Shown: one piece after another, positions 41,478 through 48,498 of the stretch
Position numbering within the stretch: position 1 is the stretch's first letter
Layout of the letters: every line of letters begins with the position of its first letter
Assembly: GCA_963753975.1 (NCBI GenBank)
Contig: CAVWEH010000001.1
Location: 354,323-418,322 of the forward strand
DNA from: an uncultured delta proteobacterium
GTDB lineage: Bacteria > Desulfobacterota > Syntrophia > Syntrophales > Smithellaceae
Reading direction: 5' to 3'
DNA length: 64,000 bases
The notes under the pieces: generated by a model
Told to the model about the DNA's origin: nothing
Seen by the model: only the letters and a program-made list of their open reading frames with translations
Databases searched by the model: none
Program-made: the position numbers and the translations under genes

Positions 41478-41671
41478 ACACGGCAGGGACGATATAAAAT
41501 TTATTCTTAATTGTCCACTTTTTTTATTCAAACAAAATTTTTCATTAAGTGATAAATATAATTTATGGCTTATTATTTTAGCGTTGATTCAATTTATATA
41601 TTGATAATTGTTTTTTATTTAGCGGCGTGTTAAAATGTAATAAATTAGTATGGAAAGGGATCATAAAGCCG

Positions 41672-42088
41672 GTGATTATTTACGATTTAAAATGTGAAAA
41701 AGGACATACTTTCGAGGGCTGGTTTCATGACCAGCAGGCCTGGAATTCGCAAAAATCGCAAAAGTTAGTTTCTTGTCCAGTGTGTAACAGCTCGAATATT
41801 GAGATAATCCCTTCTTCGATTACGATTATGGGGAAGGATTCACGGGCGGCAAACAAGCTTCAAGAGAAAGAAATTTCTCCAATTAAAGCTTTGCAAGTAT
41901 TACATCAGTATATTGATAAGAATTTCGAAGATGTGGGGAAAAAATTTGCCGAAGTTGCCTTAAAGATACATTGCGGGGAGGAAGAAAAGCGCAATATTAA
42001 AGGGACTACGACCCCCCAAGAAGAAAACAGCTTAAAGGAAGAAGGCGTTCAGTTCATTAAAATCCCCATGTTGAAGATGGATAGTTAG
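41672..42088 (+). CDS. DUF1178 family protein
   Basis: I-YDLKC-KGH-FEGWF, CPVC, FEDVG-KFAE-A-KIH, I-G-TT--E---L-EEG. Confidence 0.88.
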   Translation: MIIYDLKCEKGHTFEGWFHDQQAWNSQKSQKLVSCPVCNSSNIEIIPSSITIMGKDSRAANKLQEKEISPIKALQVLHQYIDKNFEDVGKKFAEVALKIHCGEEEKRNIKGTTTPQEENSLKEEGVQFIKIPMLKMDS

Positions 42089-42180: not shown

Positions 42181-44496
42181 ATGCACAAATTATATAAAAA
42201 CATAATTGAGGGTATTGGCAATACCCCCTTAGTGGAAATCTGCCGGCTTAATACCAATAAAAAGGTAAAGATTTATGCCAAGCTGGAAAGCGCCAATCCC
42301 GGTGGTTCCATCAAAGACCGTACCGCATTATTTATGATTGAAAACGCCGAAAAAAGGGAAGAATTAACTTCCGGCAAAATCATTTTGGAAGCAACCAGCG
42401 GCAATACGGGCATAGGTTTGGCAATGATTGCTGCGGCCAAAGGATATAAGTTATGTTTGACGATGCCGGAATCGGCCAGTGAAGAAAGGAAAAAGATTTT
42501 GCGGGCGCTGGGGGCGGAATTGCATTTTACCCCGGCCGCACAAGGTACCGACGGCGCTATTGAACTGGCCTATAAAATGCTGCGTGAAAATCCGGACAGA
42601 TATTTTGGTACTGACCAGTTCAATAATGAAGACAACATTGCCGCCCACTATTACGGAACCGCTCAGGAAATCTGGGACCAAACTGCAGGAAAAGTTACAG
42701 CGGTTGTAGCCAGTCTCGGCACCACCGGCACGGCTATGGGTATTTACAGGCGACTTAAGGAATTAAATCCCAAAGTTACAATTATCGGAGTTGAACCTTA
42801 TTTGCAGCATAAAATTCAAGGGTTGAAAAATATGCGCGAGTCCTATCGGCCGGGCATATTTGATAGAAAGTGTCTTGATGAAAAAGTGAATATCTTGGAT
42901 GAAGACGCGTTCGAAATGTCTCGAAAACTTGCCCGGGAAGAAGGAATACTTGCGGGGATGAGTTCCGGTGCAGCCATGTTTGTCGCCGTACAGAAAGTCC
43001 GCGAGATGAAAAAAGGCTTGATCGTAGTAATTTTGCCGGATAGCGGCGAGCGATATCTAAGTACCGAATTATTTGCCGTGAAAGAAGATCTGTCCACCCT
43101 GAATCTCTACAATATATTGAAGCATCGCAAGACTCTCTTTAAGCCGGTTACGAACGAAGAAGTGCGACTGCATACCTGCGGGCCAACCGTTCATGACGCG
43201 CCTCATCTGGGAAATTACCGGCGTCTTGTTGTCGCCGATTTAATTTGCCGCTATCTGATTTATAAAGGCTACAAAGTAAAACATGTTTTGGATATCGTCG
43301 ATCTGACCGATAAGTCGATTAAAGGATCGGAAAAAGCCCTGATGGAGTTGGCCGACTATTCCAATAAGTATTTACAGGTATTTCTGAAAGATACAAAATT
43401 TTTGAATATTCGCGAAGATAATATTTATGTCAAGGCTTCCGAAAATCTTGAAGAAATGTTCAAGATTGTCGAGAAACTGATCGATAAGAATTATGCGTAC
43501 GAAAAATTGCATTCCGTATATTTTGATATCTCCAAAATGCCTGATTATGGACATCTTTCTAATGTTGATCTGAGCAAGACAAGGTCAGACAGATCCGTTG
43601 ATCTTGATGATTACGAAAAAGACAGCCCGGCCGATTTTGCCCTCCTGAAAAGGGCGAATCTGAAGGAATTGAAGCGGGGTATTTATCATAAGACCAAGTG
43701 GGGTAATGTGCGGCCCGGCTGGCATTTGGAATGTGCAGCCATTTCTCAGAAGTATCTGGGCTCAGTTTATGATATTCACATAAGCGGAGTTGATGAGACG
43801 TTTCCCCACTGCGAAAATATTTTGGCTATAAACAAGGCATTCTCCGGCCACAGTGGGGCCAATTATTGGATTAGCGCTGAATTGGTACTGGTCGACGGAC
43901 GAAAGATGTCTCGCTCTTTAAATAATTCTCTGTCCCTGGCTGAATTAAGGCAAAATGGCTATAGCGGCAGAGATATACGATTTTTCCTAATGGGAATGCA
44001 TTATCGCAAGCCGATCAATTATTCCGCGACAGCGTTAAAGATGGCCAAGAATACGGTTGATAAAATCGATACTTTTATTTCCCGGCTGGATTCTATTAAT
44101 ACGGATGCTGCTGATCTTTCCGACGTAGATCAGTTGATTTACGATCTGAACAACGGATTTCAGGTTTCTTTGGATGACGATTTGAATATCGCGGGTGCAC
44201 TGGCGGCTCTTTTCGATTTCATTGGCGAGTTAAATTCGCCGTTGGTTCGGGGAATGATCGGCAGAGGGGATGCCCGAAAAATTATAACAGCGCTTAAGAG
44301 TATCAATAATATCCTGGGCGTAATGGATTTTAATCAGCAATCCGCCGGCAGAGAAATAACCGAGCTCATTCATAAAAGAGAAAAAGCAAGAGCTGCCCGT
44401 AATTGGCGGGAAGCGGATTTCATGCGACAACAACTTATTGACCTGGGGATTGATGTTTTAGACACGCCTCAGGGAGCGATCTGGCGATTTAAGTGA
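42181..44496 (+). CDS. Cysteine synthase (CysK/CysM-type) fused to a cysteinyl-tRNA synthetase-like domain
   Basis: N-half: NPGGSIKDR, EATSGNTG, LPDSGERYLST. C-half: CGPTVHD-PHLGN, RPGWHLEC, FPHCEN, KMSRS, DDDLN, R--AR--RNW--AD--R. Confidence 0.92.
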   Translation: MHKLYKNIIEGIGNTPLVEICRLNTNKKVKIYAKLESANPGGSIKDRTALFMIENAEKREELTSGKIILEATSGNTGIGLAMIAAAKGYKLCLTMPESASEERKKILRALGAELHFTPAAQGTDGAIELAYKMLRENPDRYFGTDQFNNEDNIAAHYYGTAQEIWDQTAGKVTAVVASLGTTGTAMGIYRRLKELNPKVTIIGVEPYLQHKIQGLKNMRESYRPGIFDRKCLDEKVNILDEDAFEMSRKLAREEGILAGMSSGAAMFVAVQKVREMKKGLIVVILPDSGERYLSTELFAVKEDLSTLNLYNILKHRKTLFKPVTNEEVRLHTCGPTVHDAPHLGNYRRLVVADLICRYLIYKGYKVKHVLDIVDLTDKSIKGSEKALMELADYSNKYLQVFLKDTKFLNIREDNIYVKASENLEEMFKIVEKLIDKNYAYEKLHSVYFDISKMPDYGHLSNVDLSKTRSDRSVDLDDYEKDSPADFALLKRANLKELKRGIYHKTKWGNVRPGWHLECAAISQKYLGSVYDIHISGVDETFPHCENILAINKAFSGHSGANYWISAELVLVDGRKMSRSLNNSLSLAELRQNGYSGRDIRFFLMGMHYRKPINYSATALKMAKNTVDKIDTFISRLDSINTDAADLSDVDQLIYDLNNGFQVSLDDDLNIAGALAALFDFIGELNSPLVRGMIGRGDARKIITALKSINNILGVMDFNQQSAGREITELIHKREKARAARNWREADFMRQQLIDLGIDVLDTPQGAIWRFK

Positions 44497-44506
44497 TAAT
44501 CTATAT

Positions 44507-45328
44507 ATGGATTCTATAAGAAAATCTGCAATAGCCGGATCGTGGTATCCGGGAGATGCTTCTGTTTTGAGGAAAGACATTATGGGCTACTTTAAAGCAG
44601 TGCCGGATCTGGCATTGACAGGTGAAATAGTGGCTTTAATAGCGCCGCATGCCGGCTACATATATTCGGGACAAATTGCTGCCTATGCTTATAAACTTAT
44701 CTGCGGGAAAAAATATGATGCGGCCTTCGTCGTCGGTCCGAGTCATCGCGTCGCTTTCCCCGGCGTATCGATCTACGGCGGAGGCGGTTATGAGACGCCC
44801 TTGGGCGTCATTCCCGTGAATAAATCCCTGGCGCAAGCAATTAAGAATGTGAGCGAAATAATTAACGAGATACCGGCAGCTCATTTGCAGGAGCATTCTT
44901 TGGAAATTCAACTTCCTTTTATGCAGGTGGCGCTGGGTGACTTTTCGTTCGTACCTTTGGTGATGGGCGATCAGAGCGAAAGCACCTGTCGTAAGCTTGC
45001 CGCGGCGATTCACGAGGCGGCGGGCGACAAAAAAATATTAATTGTAGCAAGCTCAGATTTATCTCATTTTCATAATTACGGCGCGGCAAAAAAGCTGGAC
45101 GAAATTATTTTGCGGCATTTGAGAGAAAGTAATGCCACAGCCCTTATGGAAACCCTCGCCCACGGGAATGCGGAGGCATGCGGAGGCGGCCCGATGGCGG
45201 TGGCTATATTGACAGCGCAGATGTTTGGCGCCAATAAAGCGCATCTTCTAAAATATGCAAATTCCGGAGACGTAACCGGCGATAAAAGTTCGGTTGTCGG
45301 ATATGCATCGGCAGTTTACTGTGAATAA
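44507..45328 (+). CDS. amrB: AmmeMemoRadiSam system protein B (MEMO1 family)
   Basis: R--AIAGSWYP, PHAGYIYSG, GPSH, EHSLEIQLPF, SSDLSH, ACG, Y-NSGD, VVGY. Confidence 0.95.
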   Translation: MDSIRKSAIAGSWYPGDASVLRKDIMGYFKAVPDLALTGEIVALIAPHAGYIYSGQIAAYAYKLICGKKYDAAFVVGPSHRVAFPGVSIYGGGGYETPLGVIPVNKSLAQAIKNVSEIINEIPAAHLQEHSLEIQLPFMQVALGDFSFVPLVMGDQSESTCRKLAAAIHEAAGDKKILIVASSDLSHFHNYGAAKKLDEIILRHLRESNATALMETLAHGNAEACGGGPMAVAILTAQMFGANKAHLLKYANSGDVTGDKSSVVGYASAVYCE

Positions 45329-45450
45329 TGATCAGTTGTTTTGACCAGTTGTCTTTGCTTTTGACTGTTTGCTTTTTCAAGATGTTGAGCAGCTTAAGGG
45401 AACTTAAGTATTATTCGAAAGACTATTTAGTGAAATAAAATGGAGCCTAT

Positions 45451-45999
45451 ATGGAACTGACTCAAAAAGAAAAAAGTGCTCTTTTGGATATTGTGAAAAA
45501 AGCAATTACGGCTAAATTCACTGATAAAGAAATGCCGAAATTAACTCTGGAGTCCAAAACACTTAAGGAGAAAAGAGGAGCGTTCGTTACTTTGAAAAAA
45601 CACGGCCATTTACGCGGCTGTATCGGATACATAAAAGCAGTTAAGCCGCTTTGGGAGACCGTGCAGGAAATGGCTGTAGCTGCGGCTTTTCATGATCCCC
45701 GTTTTCCCTCATTGAGGGCTGAAGAAATTCAGGATTTAACCTTGGAAGTGTCGGTCCTCAGTCCCCTGAAGTGTATTCAAAATATTGATGAAATTGAAGT
45801 GGGGAAGCATGGCTTATACATTGTGCGCGGCTATAATTGCGGCTTATTGTTGCCCCAAGTGGCCGTGGAATACGGATGGGACAGGGAATATTTTTTACAG
45901 GAAACTTGTTGCAAGGCCGGATTGCCTCCACATGCTTGGAAAGATAAAGAAACTGAAGTTTATATATTTTCAGCGGATTATTTTGGCGACAAAACTTAG
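45451..45999 (+). CDS. amrA: AmmeMemoRadiSam system protein A (AMMECR1 family)
   Basis: GAFVTL, LRGCIG, DPRF, EVSVLS, GLLLPQVA, KAGL. Confidence 0.95.
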   Translation: MELTQKEKSALLDIVKKAITAKFTDKEMPKLTLESKTLKEKRGAFVTLKKHGHLRGCIGYIKAVKPLWETVQEMAVAAAFHDPRFPSLRAEEIQDLTLEVSVLSPLKCIQNIDEIEVGKHGLYIVRGYNCGLLLPQVAVEYGWDREYFLQETCCKAGLPPHAWKDKETEVYIFSADYFGDKT

Positions 46000-46164: not shown

Positions 46165-48498
46165 TTATTTTATGCAAACTCGTCTTACCTGTTTTAGGTC
46201 GGTATGACCTTGAATAGCTTTAAGAATACCATCTTGCAGCAGGGTGGTCATACCTTCCGCAATCGCCGTATTGCGAATTTGTTCGGCATGCTCATGTTTT
46301 TGAATCATTCTTTTAATGTTATCTGAGGCAATAAGAAGCTCATGGATACTCATCCGTCCAAGATAGCCTGTCCCCTCGCAAGCATCGCAACCTTTCGGGC
46401 GATAGAGAGATAAATCGTTGTTATAAGGAATATTTAACTTGTCAAAATATTCTTTTCCATAGGTTTCGGCGATTTCTTCATATTCTTCTTTGCTGGGGTG
46501 ATAAGATTCCTTACATTTTTTGCATAATGTTCGAACAAGCCGCTGCGCCAGTATACCCAGCAGAGCATCAGCGAAGTTTAGTGGATCGATGCCCATATCC
46601 AATAGCCGGACAATCGTTTCCGGTGCGCTATTGGTGTGCAAGGTGCTCAAAACAAGATGTCCGGTAAGCGATGCTTCCACACCAATTTTAGCCGTTTCAA
46701 AATCACGCATTTCGCCGACCATGATAATGTCCGGATCAGCGCGTAAAAAGGAACGCATTGCTGCGGCAAAGTCGAATCCTATTTTCGGCTGTACTTGCAC
46801 TTGTCGTAGCCCATGTTGGGTGATTTCGACAGGATCTTCGGCCGTCCATATTTTTCTGCCCGGCGTATTGATATGTTTGAGACCCGCATGCAGGGTTGTC
46901 GTTTTACCGGAACCTGTAGGACCAACACATAAAATCATTCCATAGGGCTGTTCCATTATCCTCAATATTTCCGAGTAGTTTCGTTTGGATAGTGCCATCT
47001 CCTCCAGAGGCATTGTTTTTCCTTTGGCCAAAATGCGCATAACTATGTCTTCCGCTCCACCGCCACCTTGAGTAGGTATTGTAGCGACGCGTAATTCGAT
47101 TTCTTCATCACCCGCCCGCTTGTATTTGATTTTTCCGTCCTGCGGCAATCTTTTTACTGTGATATCGAGGTTAGACATTATTTTAATACGCGAGACAACC
47201 GCGGCACGATAATTATATGGTAGCGTCTGATAGAGCGAACATTCTCCGTCAATTCGGTAACGCACCTCGACGTTTTTAGTATCGGTATTAGGCTCAATAT
47301 GAATGTCCGACGCACGACGGCTATACGCCTCACTTATAATTTTATTGACTAATTGCATGATGACACTGTGCGATTCTGTGATAACTTCTCCATCTTCTTC
47401 GACAACCTCTTCATCTTGATCCAGTTTCCCTAGTATTTCGTCTATCGATGAAGTATCCTGAGGCGATGCGTAAAAACGATCAATATATTTCAAAATGTCA
47501 TCAGATAGAGAAACATCATATTTGACTGATTTTGTTTTTAAGAGGCCTTCAATGGTATCTCTTTTAATGATATTTGTGGGGTCATCGACAAGAACACGGA
47601 TTCTGCCGTCAACTCTTTCCAAAGGAACCCATAGTTCGCGCTTTAAATAGGGCTTTTTAAGATTTCTCAGCAAATCGCCCGGTATAGGTAGTTTATCGTT
47701 GAAAGTTACGAATTGGCAATTATAATATTCGGCCAGAGACATGCCAATATCATCTTTCGAGACCCTATATTTATTAATGAGAACATTTTCAATCGGTTCT
47801 TTTTGCTCGCGTGATTCTTCTGTGGCTTTATCTATGTATGCTTGGGTTATATGTCCATGTCTGATTAAGTAATCGAATTTCGAATGTCGGCGCTGTTTGC
47901 TGAACTTCTCCTGATTATAAAAAGCAATTCCCAACACATTGCATATTTCATCGAGAAAGATTTGGCGGTAATCGTCAATTTTATCCCCGCCTTTTTGAGT
48001 CGTCACTTCCATTACGCCCATGATATTACGTTCATACAGAATTGGAATTGCTAAAACTTGACCCGATAATACCCCCAACTTCTTGTCCAAGCTACGATCG
48101 AACTTCAACTGTTCATTAATGCTTTTTAACTCCCGTTCATTGTAAACATCGGCAATCAGGACCATTCTTTTATTATTTGCCACATAACCGACGATGGATG
48201 AGTTATTAACAGGCAAGCGGACTTCTTTAGTCACAGAATCTTCTAAATGCATCGAGTAAATTTCTTTTTTGACCTTATCGAACACATAAATTGTTAGGAC
48301 ATGAATGTTAAAGAGATTACGGATATCCTCTTTAATTTCAAGAATTATTTCTTTTATACTTTCGGCGCTATTTATTCGATTATTTATACTCTGGATAGAT
48401 TTGTGAAATTCAAGGTTCTTTAAAAGTTCCTCTACCTGAGGTGCATTGGATATAGCGTCTTTTTGCGGTCCCGTGGTAAAAGAAGTTGGTTTACGCAT
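46165..48498 (-). CDS. GspE/PilB family ATPase with N-terminal GAF domain
   Basis: GAF-like N-terminus (SIVGYVA...DVY...FDRSLDKKLG...LAIPI), ASDIHIEP, PQDGKI, GPTGSGKTT, EDPVE, LRADPD, TGHLVLSTLHTN, tetracysteine Zn motif. Confidence 0.92.
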   Translation of the reverse strand: MRKPTSFTTGPQKDAISNAPQVEELLKNLEFHKSIQSINNRINSAESIKEIILEIKEDIRNLFNIHVLTIYVFDKVKKEIYSMHLEDSVTKEVRLPVNNSSIVGYVANNKRMVLIADVYNERELKSINEQLKFDRSLDKKLGVLSGQVLAIPILYERNIMGVMEVTTQKGGDKIDDYRQIFLDEICNVLGIAFYNQEKFSKQRRHSKFDYLIRHGHITQAYIDKATEESREQKEPIENVLINKYRVSKDDIGMSLAEYYNCQFVTFNDKLPIPGDLLRNLKKPYLKRELWVPLERVDGRIRVLVDDPTNIIKRDTIEGLLKTKSVKYDVSLSDDILKYIDRFYASPQDTSSIDEILGKLDQDEEVVEEDGEVITESHSVIMQLVNKIISEAYSRRASDIHIEPNTDTKNVEVRYRIDGECSLYQTLPYNYRAAVVSRIKIMSNLDITVKRLPQDGKIKYKRAGDEEIELRVATIPTQGGGGAEDIVMRILAKGKTMPLEEMALSKRNYSEILRIMEQPYGMILCVGPTGSGKTTTLHAGLKHINTPGRKIWTAEDPVEITQHGLRQVQVQPKIGFDFAAAMRSFLRADPDIIMVGEMRDFETAKIGVEASLTGHLVLSTLHTNSAPETIVRLLDMGIDPLNFADALLGILAQRLVRTLCKKCKESYHPSKEEYEEIAETYGKEYFDKLNIPYNNDLSLYRPKGCDACEGTGYLGRMSIHELLIASDNIKRMIQKHEHAEQIRNTAIAEGMTTLLQDGILKAIQGHTDLKQVRRVCIK

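Follow-up and report, generated by a model that had tools for sequence, protein, structure and literature searches.

Two paralogues of cysteinyl-tRNA synthetase (CysRS) are named in Table 1 of PMC9437257, the part of that article on duplicated aminoacyl-tRNA synthetases on which we draw: CysRS* and MshC only. Here we describe a protein that joins a pyridoxal phosphate (PLP)-dependent cysteine synthase of the CysM type to a full-length CysRS-like domain. It is encoded in a stretch of 64,000 nucleotides from an uncultured delta proteobacterium of the family Smithellaceae (Desulfobacterota; Syntrophales; assembly GCA_963753975.1, contig CAVWEH010000001.1, positions 354,323 to 418,322 of the forward strand), referred to below as the window, to which coordinates refer unless another source is named. 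The reading that we favour, with a probability of roughly 40%, is that the protein acts as a cysteine synthase independent of the serine acetyltransferase CysE, and that its CysRS-derived module would still load tRNA-Cys.

The closest described systems include the canonical counterparts of the two halves. Like canonical CysRS (E. coli CysS, structures 1LI5 and 1U0B; family TIGR00435), the fused half has a Rossmann fold, a connective peptide (CP) domain, a DALR or stem-contact region and a C-terminal anticodon-binding domain; it scores 291 bits to 8QHP, the closest solved chain, and 248 bits to 1LI5, and it keeps HxGx, KMS.S, C28, C209, H234 and WH.EC. It differs in being a second copy outside the canonical clade, with a 4-residue insertion in the CP domain, changes at 17 of 62 positions that are invariant in canonical enzymes, E238 among them, and a synthase attached. 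The N-terminal half resembles CysM of Salmonella and E. coli (2JC3, 2BHS, 2V03; TIGR01136 and TIGR01138), with 259–261 bits to 2JC3 and 2BHS and with its PLP lysine and the TSGNTG, GTTGT and SSGAA motifs intact. Unlike CysM, the fusion lies below the cysM equivalog cut-off, occurs in genomes without detectable CysE and carries a C-terminal CysRS-like module of ~470 residues.

MshC (3C8Z, 8HFM; TIGR03447), also a paralogue of CysRS, activates cysteine outside the housekeeping role and is not known to carry the C-terminal tRNA anticodon-binding domain. The fused half is distant from it, with only 110 bits to chains of MshC and, for TIGR03447, 174.7 bits where the cut-off is 485.1, and MshC is shorter at ~410 residues (chains of 413–414). 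In HisZ–HisG and in the HisRS-like domain of GCN2, a synthetase paralogue is attached to, or in complex with, an enzyme of the pathway of the same amino acid. As a comparison of how the parts might work, these cases resemble the fusion in joining a synthetase paralogue to a pathway enzyme and in that the charging motifs are lost in many lineages; the fusion differs in that its order-level clade keeps the catalytic motifs and in being covalent instead of a complex.

CysRS* of the Desulfobacterales is, in the part of Mukai et al. 2017 (PMC5389517) on which we draw, likewise a second, diverged CysRS from the same broad bacterial group with changes in the CP region; as given there, it lacks the anticodon-binding domain, lies beside selC* and selB* and is unfused. 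The fusion, by contrast, keeps the anticodon-binding domain, has DUF1178, Memo and AMMECR1 genes as neighbours and does not track selC*-like tRNAs. The SepRS–SepCysS system, to go by the cited portions of PMC5424206 and PMC8762117, serves organisms without the CysE/CysK route and ties the making of cysteine from a phosphoserine-type donor to tRNA-Cys. It differs in that no SepRS was found in the source genome, where the best TIGR00470 match is of 25 bits (cut-off 380), and in that the PLP half of the fusion is a fold-type II CysM with an intact TSGNTG loop. No cysteine synthase–CysRS fusion is described in the full-text literature searched, supplements and subscription papers being outside its scope, and the available portions of PMC2922099, PMC5389517, PMC5424206, PMC8762117, PMC9437257, PMC12926118 and PMC7311316 make no mention of one.

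A cysteine synthase fused to a CysRS-like domain

The fusion is one open reading frame (ORF) with an ATG start and zero internal stops. The sequence-only reading of the window had placed the junction of the two domains at about 43090, which was confirmed; the junction falls in residues 299–306. The gene and its parts are the following.

42181..44496, + strand: fusion ORF including the stop codon, 771 aa
42181..43074, + strand: CysM-type PLP cysteine synthase half, residues 1–298 (PF00291 at 10–287; TIGR01136, 369 bits)
42313..42315, + strand: PLP-binding lysine K45 in GGSIKDR, present in 19 of 19 order-level fusions and in all fused representatives examined
42394..42411, + strand: TSGNTG loop, residues 72–77, in 19 of 19 order-level fusions and most other fused forms, SSGNTG in some
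42802..42852, + strand: conserved loop LQHKIQGLKNMRESYRP, residues 208–224, strongly conserved, low model confidence
43075..43098, + strand: inter-domain linker, residues 299–306 (predicted local distance difference test, pLDDT, <50 over residues 293–303)
43099..44049, + strand: CysRS-like catalytic half (Rossmann fold and CP domain), residues 307–623 (PF01406 at 320–623; TIGR00435, 364.5 bits)
43177..43179, + strand: Cys333, counterpart of E. coli zinc ligand C28 on the 1LI5 alignment
43204..43215, + strand: HLGN, equivalent of the HIGH motif by motif alignment, residues 342–345
43297..43299, + strand: Val373, aligned counterpart of E. coli T68, V or I across the order-level clade
43633..43680, + strand: CP-domain signature DFALLKRANLKELKRG with the 4-residue insertion, common by alignment to the whole paralogue superclade
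43732..43734, + strand: Cys518, counterpart of E. coli zinc ligand C209 on the 1LI5 alignment, inside WHLECA
43807..43821, + strand: HCENI, residues 543–547; by alignment H234 is kept, H235 is Cys and E238 is Ile
43903..43917, + strand: KMSRS, residues 575–579, aligned equivalent of KMSKS with K269 replaced by Arg
44050..44493, + strand: helical stem-contact/DALR region and C-terminal anticodon-binding domain, residues 624–771 (PF09190 at 660–714, PF23493 at 725–769, C-terminal alignment)

In Pfam the N-terminal half matches PALP (residues 10–287, 249 bits, cut-off 35), and the C-terminal half matches tRNA-synt_1e (320–623, 268 bits), DALR_2 (660–714) and CysS_C (725–769). Among the NCBIfam models, the N-terminal half scores above the cut-off of cysKM (TIGR01136; 369 bits, cut-off 344.15) and below that of the cysM equivalog (TIGR01138; 364.8 bits, cut-off 394.2). 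The C-terminal half, 465 residues of full-length CysRS-like sequence, scores above the cut-off of cysS (TIGR00435; 364.5 bits, cut-off 340), with residues 307–769 covered. The closest solved relatives of the CysM half are cysteine synthases, 9NLD and the CysM structures 2JC3 and 2BHS. The TSGNTG motif, which we take to be the substrate carboxylate-binding loop of CysK and CysM, is intact, which on that role suggests that the substrate is a free amino acid and not one carried by a tRNA.

When E. coli residue numbers were counted on the 1LI5 alignment, every motif change that had been listed from the sequence proved to be present in the CysRS half: TVHD for TVYD, LDIVDLTDKSIK for RNITDIDDKIIK, DIHISG..FPHCENI for DIHGGG..FPHHENE, and KMSRS for KMSKS. 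Three of the four residues that we take to be the zinc ligands of E. coli CysRS (C28, C209, H234 and E238) are retained; E238 aligns to Ile and H235 to Cys, as the sequence-only reading had it. HLGN is no departure from HIGH: many canonical CysRS representatives read HIGN or HLGN.

Distribution of the fusion

More than 120 protein clusters of 755–783 aa with the same domains (74–90% identity) were found in the protein collection, from Smithellaceae, Smithella and Syntrophaceae, and these carry the label 'cysteine--tRNA ligase'. The expectation that similar fusions would already be annotated in relatives was therefore correct; they stand there as 'cysteine--tRNA ligase' or 'cysteine synthase', without comment. 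Within the order, 123 of 151 genomes gave a fusion-type match to the CysRS half (47–86% identity; open frames mostly of 770–850 aa), one gave a partial match at a contig end, and 27 were without the fusion. Across the phylum, ~160 of 401 sampled genomes gave a full-length match (E <1e-130), with 44–57% identity outside the order, and the ESM Atlas includes fused clusters with 113, 64 and 65 members, for the most part Thermodesulfobacteriota. Because uninterrupted fused frames recur in this way in both order and phylum, the fusion is not the product of chance or of an assembly error. It is real, ancient and phylum-wide.

A metagenome-assembled genome of Nanoarchaeota encodes another cysteine synthase–CysRS fusion (P0123), which has fully canonical motifs, is without the CP insertion and is nested in the canonical clade. 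By its sequence this looks like a separate fusion event, and the joining of the two activities would therefore have been selected more than once.

One genome that had been picked as fusion-less holds a 357-bit cysKM match in an 871-aa frame (G225:C2:267368-268246), which may be a degenerate fusion scored low by the full-length query. A seemingly longer fusion of 1354 aa (L086) was rejected as such; its extra N-terminus is a GC-rich low-complexity open frame with no domain.

The CysRS half lies outside the canonical clade

The source genome (2.43 Mb, 6 contigs, 95% complete) encodes a second CysRS on another contig. This canonical enzyme has HIGH, KMSKS and FPHHENE intact, scores 450 bits with PF01406 as against 270 bits for the fusion, and is 30% identical to the fused half. 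The genome also encodes a separate CysK (443 bits, vs 371 for the fusion), a cysE-like gene of 167.6 bits, under the cut-off of 210, and SelA; ARAGORN reports one tRNA-Cys(GCA) and one tRNA-Sec. A canonical cysS at 34–37% identity stands beside the fusion in nearly all of the 123 fusion genomes of the order, and the three with a single match only are 87, 75 and 68% complete. Outside the order, a separate canonical CysRS was present in ten of the ten genomes checked (91–100% complete; 319–476 bits; frames of 469–588 aa).

In a FastTree phylogeny of 111 CysRS halves (midpoint root, Shimodaira–Hasegawa-like support only), the order-level fusions form one clade (support 100), which lies outside a large canonical clade (support 97–98) that includes the genome's own CysRS. 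Degenerate fused representatives also fall outside the canonical clade: P0125, P0127 and P0131, P0122 with P0132, and P0135, the join of P0127 and P0131 being flagged as a long-branch risk. Common to the order-level and degenerate fused forms, and absent from canonical enzymes, are the 4-residue CP-domain insertion and the motif DF(T/A)LLKR..L.ELK.G...WGNVRPSW. Judged by alignment and tree, the fused half is a diverged second copy of CysRS. The sequence-only reading had raised a repurposed paralogue as one possibility, to be given up if the fusion were the only cysS of its genome and charged tRNA-Cys normally; the existence of a second, canonical cysS, the low identity between the two and the position of the fused half in the tree support a repurposed paralogue.

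Outside the window, the source genome holds a second tRNA-Sec-like gene that ARAGORN missed (G000:C1:76180-76275 (-), which is L013:1501-1596 (-); RF01852, 59.3 bits, above gathering). Its anticodon is UCA and its discriminator U and not G; the acceptor/T arm is of a bulged 8/4 type, and a terminator-like hairpin follows the gene. It fits the selC* tRNA-Cys of Mukai et al. 2017, with no selB* adjoining. A same-genus genome (G111) has a second tRNA-Sec-like gene at equal score, and sporadic second matches occur elsewhere in the order.

Constraint and remodelling of the CysRS half

Over 21 pairs from seven genomes, the CysM half has a mean identity of 74.2%. The fused CysRS half, at 60.0%, diverges in this order at the same slow pace as the housekeeping CysRS, which is at 62.5% in those genomes. 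Sixty-two alignment columns with an invariance of 93% or more among 76 canonical-type CysRS representatives were counted as canonical-invariant, paralogue rows and five rows of uncertain class (P0128, P0138, P0148, P0145, P0168) having been set aside before the count. In the 19 order-level fusions, 45 of the 62 columns are retained. Eleven others have gone to a new fixed residue (Y331H, Y338H, W489L, G510V, G513S, S519A, G535S, H544C, E547V/I, Q550I and K578R in fusion numbering), and the six variable ones include T373 (E. coli T68), which is V or I. The fixed changes surround the zinc/cysteine pocket; in E. coli numbering, the changed positions, fixed or variable, include E238V/I, H235C, T68V/I, Q241I, Y33H, S210A, G226S and K269R. 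HxGx and KMSRS are kept in all 19 fusions, the second lysine of KMSKS being Arg in every one, and the WH.EC motif is kept as well. On this pattern of conservation, the CysRS half in this order is strongly constrained, and its pocket was first remodelled and has since been frozen.

According to the part of a 2026 review that quotes Akaike 2017 (PMC12926118), E. coli CysRS has a side activity as a persulfide synthase that requires the lysines in 73-KIIK-76 and 266-KMSK-269, whereas aminoacylation can do without them. All 19 members of the fusion clade have Arg in place of K269, and most families have Arg in place of K73 and K76; the window protein keeps K73 and K76. Persulfide chemistry by the CysRS half, one of the roles first proposed for it, is made less likely by these replacements.

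In other lineages the CysRS half takes several forms. It is near-canonical in L074, L081, L086 and P0121 and fully degenerate in L085, P0125, P0127 and P0131, of which P0125 is a Desulfovibrio ferrophilus protein labelled 'cysteine synthase'. HIGH and KMSKS are lost, with all four zinc-site residues kept, in L083, L087, L089 and L090; E238T is found with KLSS in L084 and L091; and the C-terminus is altered or truncated in L075, L079, L093, L080, L082, L088 and P0122. The CysM catalytic motifs are intact in every fused form examined, SSGNTG replacing TSGNTG in some.

The CysM half and its apparent independence of CysE

K45, TSGNTG, GTTGT and SSGAA are invariant in the 19 order-level fusions. 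The co-occurrence of the fusion with cysE was followed in 52 hand-picked genomes of few contigs and high completeness, 40 with the fusion (frames of at least 704 aa) and 12 taken as fusion-less, using the cysE model at E <= 1e-15 and the cysKM model at E <= 1e-30. These genomes are related and hand-chosen, so the pattern is descriptive and carries no statistic.

Fusion with cysE: 17 genomes, 13 families; cysE of 150–171 bits; standalone CysK in 17 of 17 (404–465 bits); fusion the sole cysKM match in 0
Fusion without cysE: 23 genomes, 14 families; no cysE at E <= 1e-15; no CysK of at least 400 bits; fusion the sole cysKM match in 21
Picked as fusion-less: 12 genomes; cysE-like gene in 11; standalone CysK of at least 400 bits in 11; sole match not applicable

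In the 17 genomes with both fusion and cysE, CysK often adjoins cysE. Among the cysE-less fusion genomes, G045 has merely a 77-bit hexapeptide-type match, and G076 and G400 have one extra CysM-like match of ~300 aa each. In the fusion-less group, G494 has neither cysE nor CysK, a 318-aa CysM-like protein being its sole cysKM match. As the co-occurrence in these genomes indicates, cysE keeps company with standalone CysK, and the CysM half of the fusion would work without CysE. Enzymes that make cysteine from O-phosphoserine are known, and because it appears independent of serine acetyltransferase, the CysM half probably uses O-phosphoserine or another non-acetylated serine donor. To judge from its motifs, the CysM half is always intact, and it is often the only cysteine-synthase-family protein of the genome.

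Standalone CysM-like proteins of ~300 aa that score 355–375 bits, like the CysM half of the fusion, were seen at G076:C3:119950-120813, G074:C1:2066705-2067568, G013:C8:531322-532185 and G494:C1:1573691-1574569. They may belong, unfused, to the same CysE-independent subfamily.

Structure prediction and docking

An AlphaFold2 (AF2) model of the fusion, built on a 29-row alignment, has a mean pLDDT of 84.5 and a predicted template modelling (pTM) score of 0.63. The pLDDT is below 50 at residues 208–224 (the conserved HKIQGLKNM loop), 293–303 (the linker) and 468–482. Docking of the two halves (304–771 against 1–298) gave an interface score (ipSAE) of 0.41, as against 0.00 for the best of three controls; at least 84% of contacts are common to the runs, and partner pLDDT is at least 90. 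The docking mark is reached by 116 of 157 solved complexes and by 2 of 215 mismatched pairs, and among passing scores of 0.60 or less there are just 18 of the 157 solved complexes and both of the passing mismatches. A fixed interface between the halves is possible on these models. Substrate channelling, which the sequence-only reading had put forward, is neither shown nor excluded by them.

Genomic neighbourhood

At the order level the fusion lies in a same-strand run of DUF4416, YicC, Gmk, RpoZ, PyrF, SpoU methyltransferase, PilC, (tRNA-Pro), DUF1178, fusion, Memo and AMMECR1 (20 loci fetched; fusion within the ORF set in 18). In the window the gene before it is the following.

41627-42088, + strand: DUF1178 zinc-ribbon protein, directly upstream of the fusion

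DUF1178 holds this position in 15 of the 18 order-level loci and in none of 20 loci from other families of the phylum, and it was rejected as a functional partner because the synteny is order-level only. None of the other order-level neighbours recurs in those 20 loci either (0/20), and Pfam searches of 118 flanking proteins gave no recurrent partner outside the order. The listed GTG start of the DUF1178 gene is probably too far upstream, since the Pfam match begins at residue 17 and relatives have ~138 aa.

Directly downstream of the fusion, at 44507-45999 (+), are Memo-like and AMMECR1 genes, kept in 10 of the 18 order-level loci; in some relatives a ~335-aa gene comes next. A 777-aa type II/IV secretion ATPase (T2SSE) with N-terminal GAF and MshEN domains, at 46165-48498 (-), is common only to the same-genus locus. 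In several unrelated lineages, genes for tRNA modification lie no more than three genes from the fusion, which may be chance: in L074 MiaA (directly upstream), in L083 and L089 a MiaB-like methylthiotransferase and a TtuA-like PP-loop ATPase, in L092 a TrmA-like methyltransferase, and in L085 a pseudouridine synthase. Rfam at its gathering threshold gave no riboswitch or T-box in the window, tRNA-Pro being the only match, and promoter-like and terminator-like sites there are at shuffle level.

Possible functions of the fusion

Both halves are, judged by their conservation, under enzyme-grade constraint. In the reading that we favour, the N-terminal half would be a working CysM-type PLP cysteine synthase with no need of serine acetyltransferase, and would make cysteine from O-phosphoserine or another non-acetylated serine donor and sulfide. 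The CysRS half, with its ATP motifs (HLGN, KMSRS), three zinc ligands, WH.EC and full tRNA-binding apparatus kept, would bind ATP, the zinc-bound thiolate and tRNA-Cys, and would load tRNA-Cys with cysteine made on the same polypeptide. A 'make-and-load' side route would thereby run alongside the free-pool route through CysE/CysK and housekeeping CysRS, the remodelled pocket giving the CysRS half an altered affinity or kinetics. That each half is catalytically active, that the halves are coupled and which serine donor is used are all inferred.

Several observations weigh against this reading. The fused half was never seen as the housekeeping CysRS, a canonical copy being present alongside it in almost all genomes of the order and in 10 of 10 outside. 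Sister lineages lose HIGH, KMSKS and the zinc cysteines yet keep the fusion and an intact CysM half, and therefore aminoacylation cannot be what holds the family together. In the order itself, 17 of the 62 canonical-invariant columns have changed (11 to a new fixed residue, 6 variable), and an enzyme with the same substrate has no obvious reason for such changes in the pocket. The absence of CysE rests on one hidden Markov model at E <= 1e-15, which is a search result and no proof; diverged serine acetyltransferases exist, as described in the cited portion of PMC7311316, and hence could have been missed. Finally, the AF2 model gives no fixed orientation of the halves, the linker is of low confidence, and the support from docking is weak.

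A close and only somewhat less likely alternative is that the CysRS-derived half is a sensor or regulator, which would bind tRNA-Cys and/or cysteine and ATP and tune the CysM half to cysteine sufficiency by a logic like that of HisZ–HisG or the GCN2 HisRS-like domain; residual charging would then be part of sensing and no supply route. It fits this proposal that the canonical CysRS is never replaced by the fused half, and that where catalytic motifs are lost a module of ~460 residues persists beside an invariant CysM half, with the shared CP-domain insertion and often the C-terminal domain. The forms without HIGH and KMSKS but with four zinc-site residues (L083, L087, L089, L090) would suit a domain that binds cysteine and does not adenylate it, and the remodelled pocket would suit a tuned affinity. 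In genomes without CysE, the committed step would be the synthase itself, in need of some control on it; the fusion is the sole cysKM match in 21 of 40 genomes. A pure binding module, however, has no obvious need of HxGx and KMSRS, which are kept in 19 of 19 fusions of the order, where the half evolves slowly like an essential synthetase; the C-terminal anticodon-binding part is lost or truncated in the lineages listed above, so that tRNA reading is not universal, and the inter-domain interface is without confident support. The loading route and the sensor could be one mechanism, if charging itself reads out cysteine sufficiency. We consider it unlikely that the substrate has changed. CysM-type enzymes accept nucleophiles besides sulfide, and the CysM half might make a relative of cysteine that the remodelled CysRS pocket activates for tRNA-Cys or another acceptor, such as cysteine persulfide (from a polysulfide nucleophile), selenocysteine (selenide) or S-sulfocysteine (thiosulfate). 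Eleven invariant positions fixed to new residues and six more that vary, clustered in the zinc/amino-acid pocket and under strong constraint, form a pattern of altered specificity, and with a pocket remodelled and since conserved a different amino acid is a candidate substrate of the CysRS half. Nothing, however, singles out one compound, selenocysteine has its ordinary SelA route in this genome, the persulfide-synthase lysines are replaced as described above, and the three remaining zinc ligands still imply a thiol or selenol substrate.

A long shot would combine elements of these proposals in a self-contained route: the CysM half would add a non-sulfide nucleophile (persulfide/polysulfide or selenide) to a phosphoserine-type donor, the re-frozen pocket (E238V/I, H235C, T68V/I, Q241I) would load the product on tRNA-Cys, so that a modified cysteine would enter proteins co-translationally, and lineages with decayed sites would keep the module as a tRNA-Cys/cysteine sensor of their only cysteine synthase. 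Plain redundancy, in which a second cysteine synthase and a second CysRS, both of them ordinary, happen to be fused and are co-expressed without functional coupling, is improbable. Both halves do score above family thresholds and the linker is flexible in the model, but the fusion has been kept across a phylum, the pocket changes are fixed and not drifting, the canonical CysRS is never lost, and decayed CysRS halves have not been deleted. Least of all do we expect a dedicated synthetase for a selC*-type tRNA-Cys(UCA), like CysRS* of the Desulfobacterales. The genome holds the second tRNA-Sec-like gene with anticodon UCA and discriminator U (U73), and the CP region, reader of the acceptor end, differs from that of canonical CysRS; but that tRNA gene is ~320 kb from the fusion with no selB* adjoining, and the fused half keeps the anticodon-binding domain that CysRS* is without in the cited part of PMC5389517. 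Second tRNA-Sec-like matches (47–64 bits) are sporadic, in ~25–30 of 151 genomes as against 123 with the fusion. The selC* link was rejected as an explanation, being largely refuted by this distribution, sporadic for the tRNA and near-universal in the order for the fusion.

Meaning for cysteine metabolism

The fusion would be a third CysRS paralogue, spread across a phylum and joined covalently to the synthase of its own amino acid, and its family offers a natural series from near-canonical through remodelled to catalytically decayed CysRS halves. It bears on how cysteine is made and controlled in anaerobes without serine acetyltransferase, the fusion being the sole cysteine-synthase-family protein in 21 of the 40 hand-picked genomes that carry it, on whether a reactive amino acid is handed directly to its tRNA in cells, and on how synthetase paralogues become sensors. 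Annotation pipelines name the protein by its better-scoring half, as 'cysteine--tRNA ligase' or 'cysteine synthase', so that the second function is hidden and pathway reconstruction can be misled. Widespread in syntrophic and sulfate-reducer-type anaerobes, the fusion may represent a new kind of link between the synthesis of an amino acid and its use.

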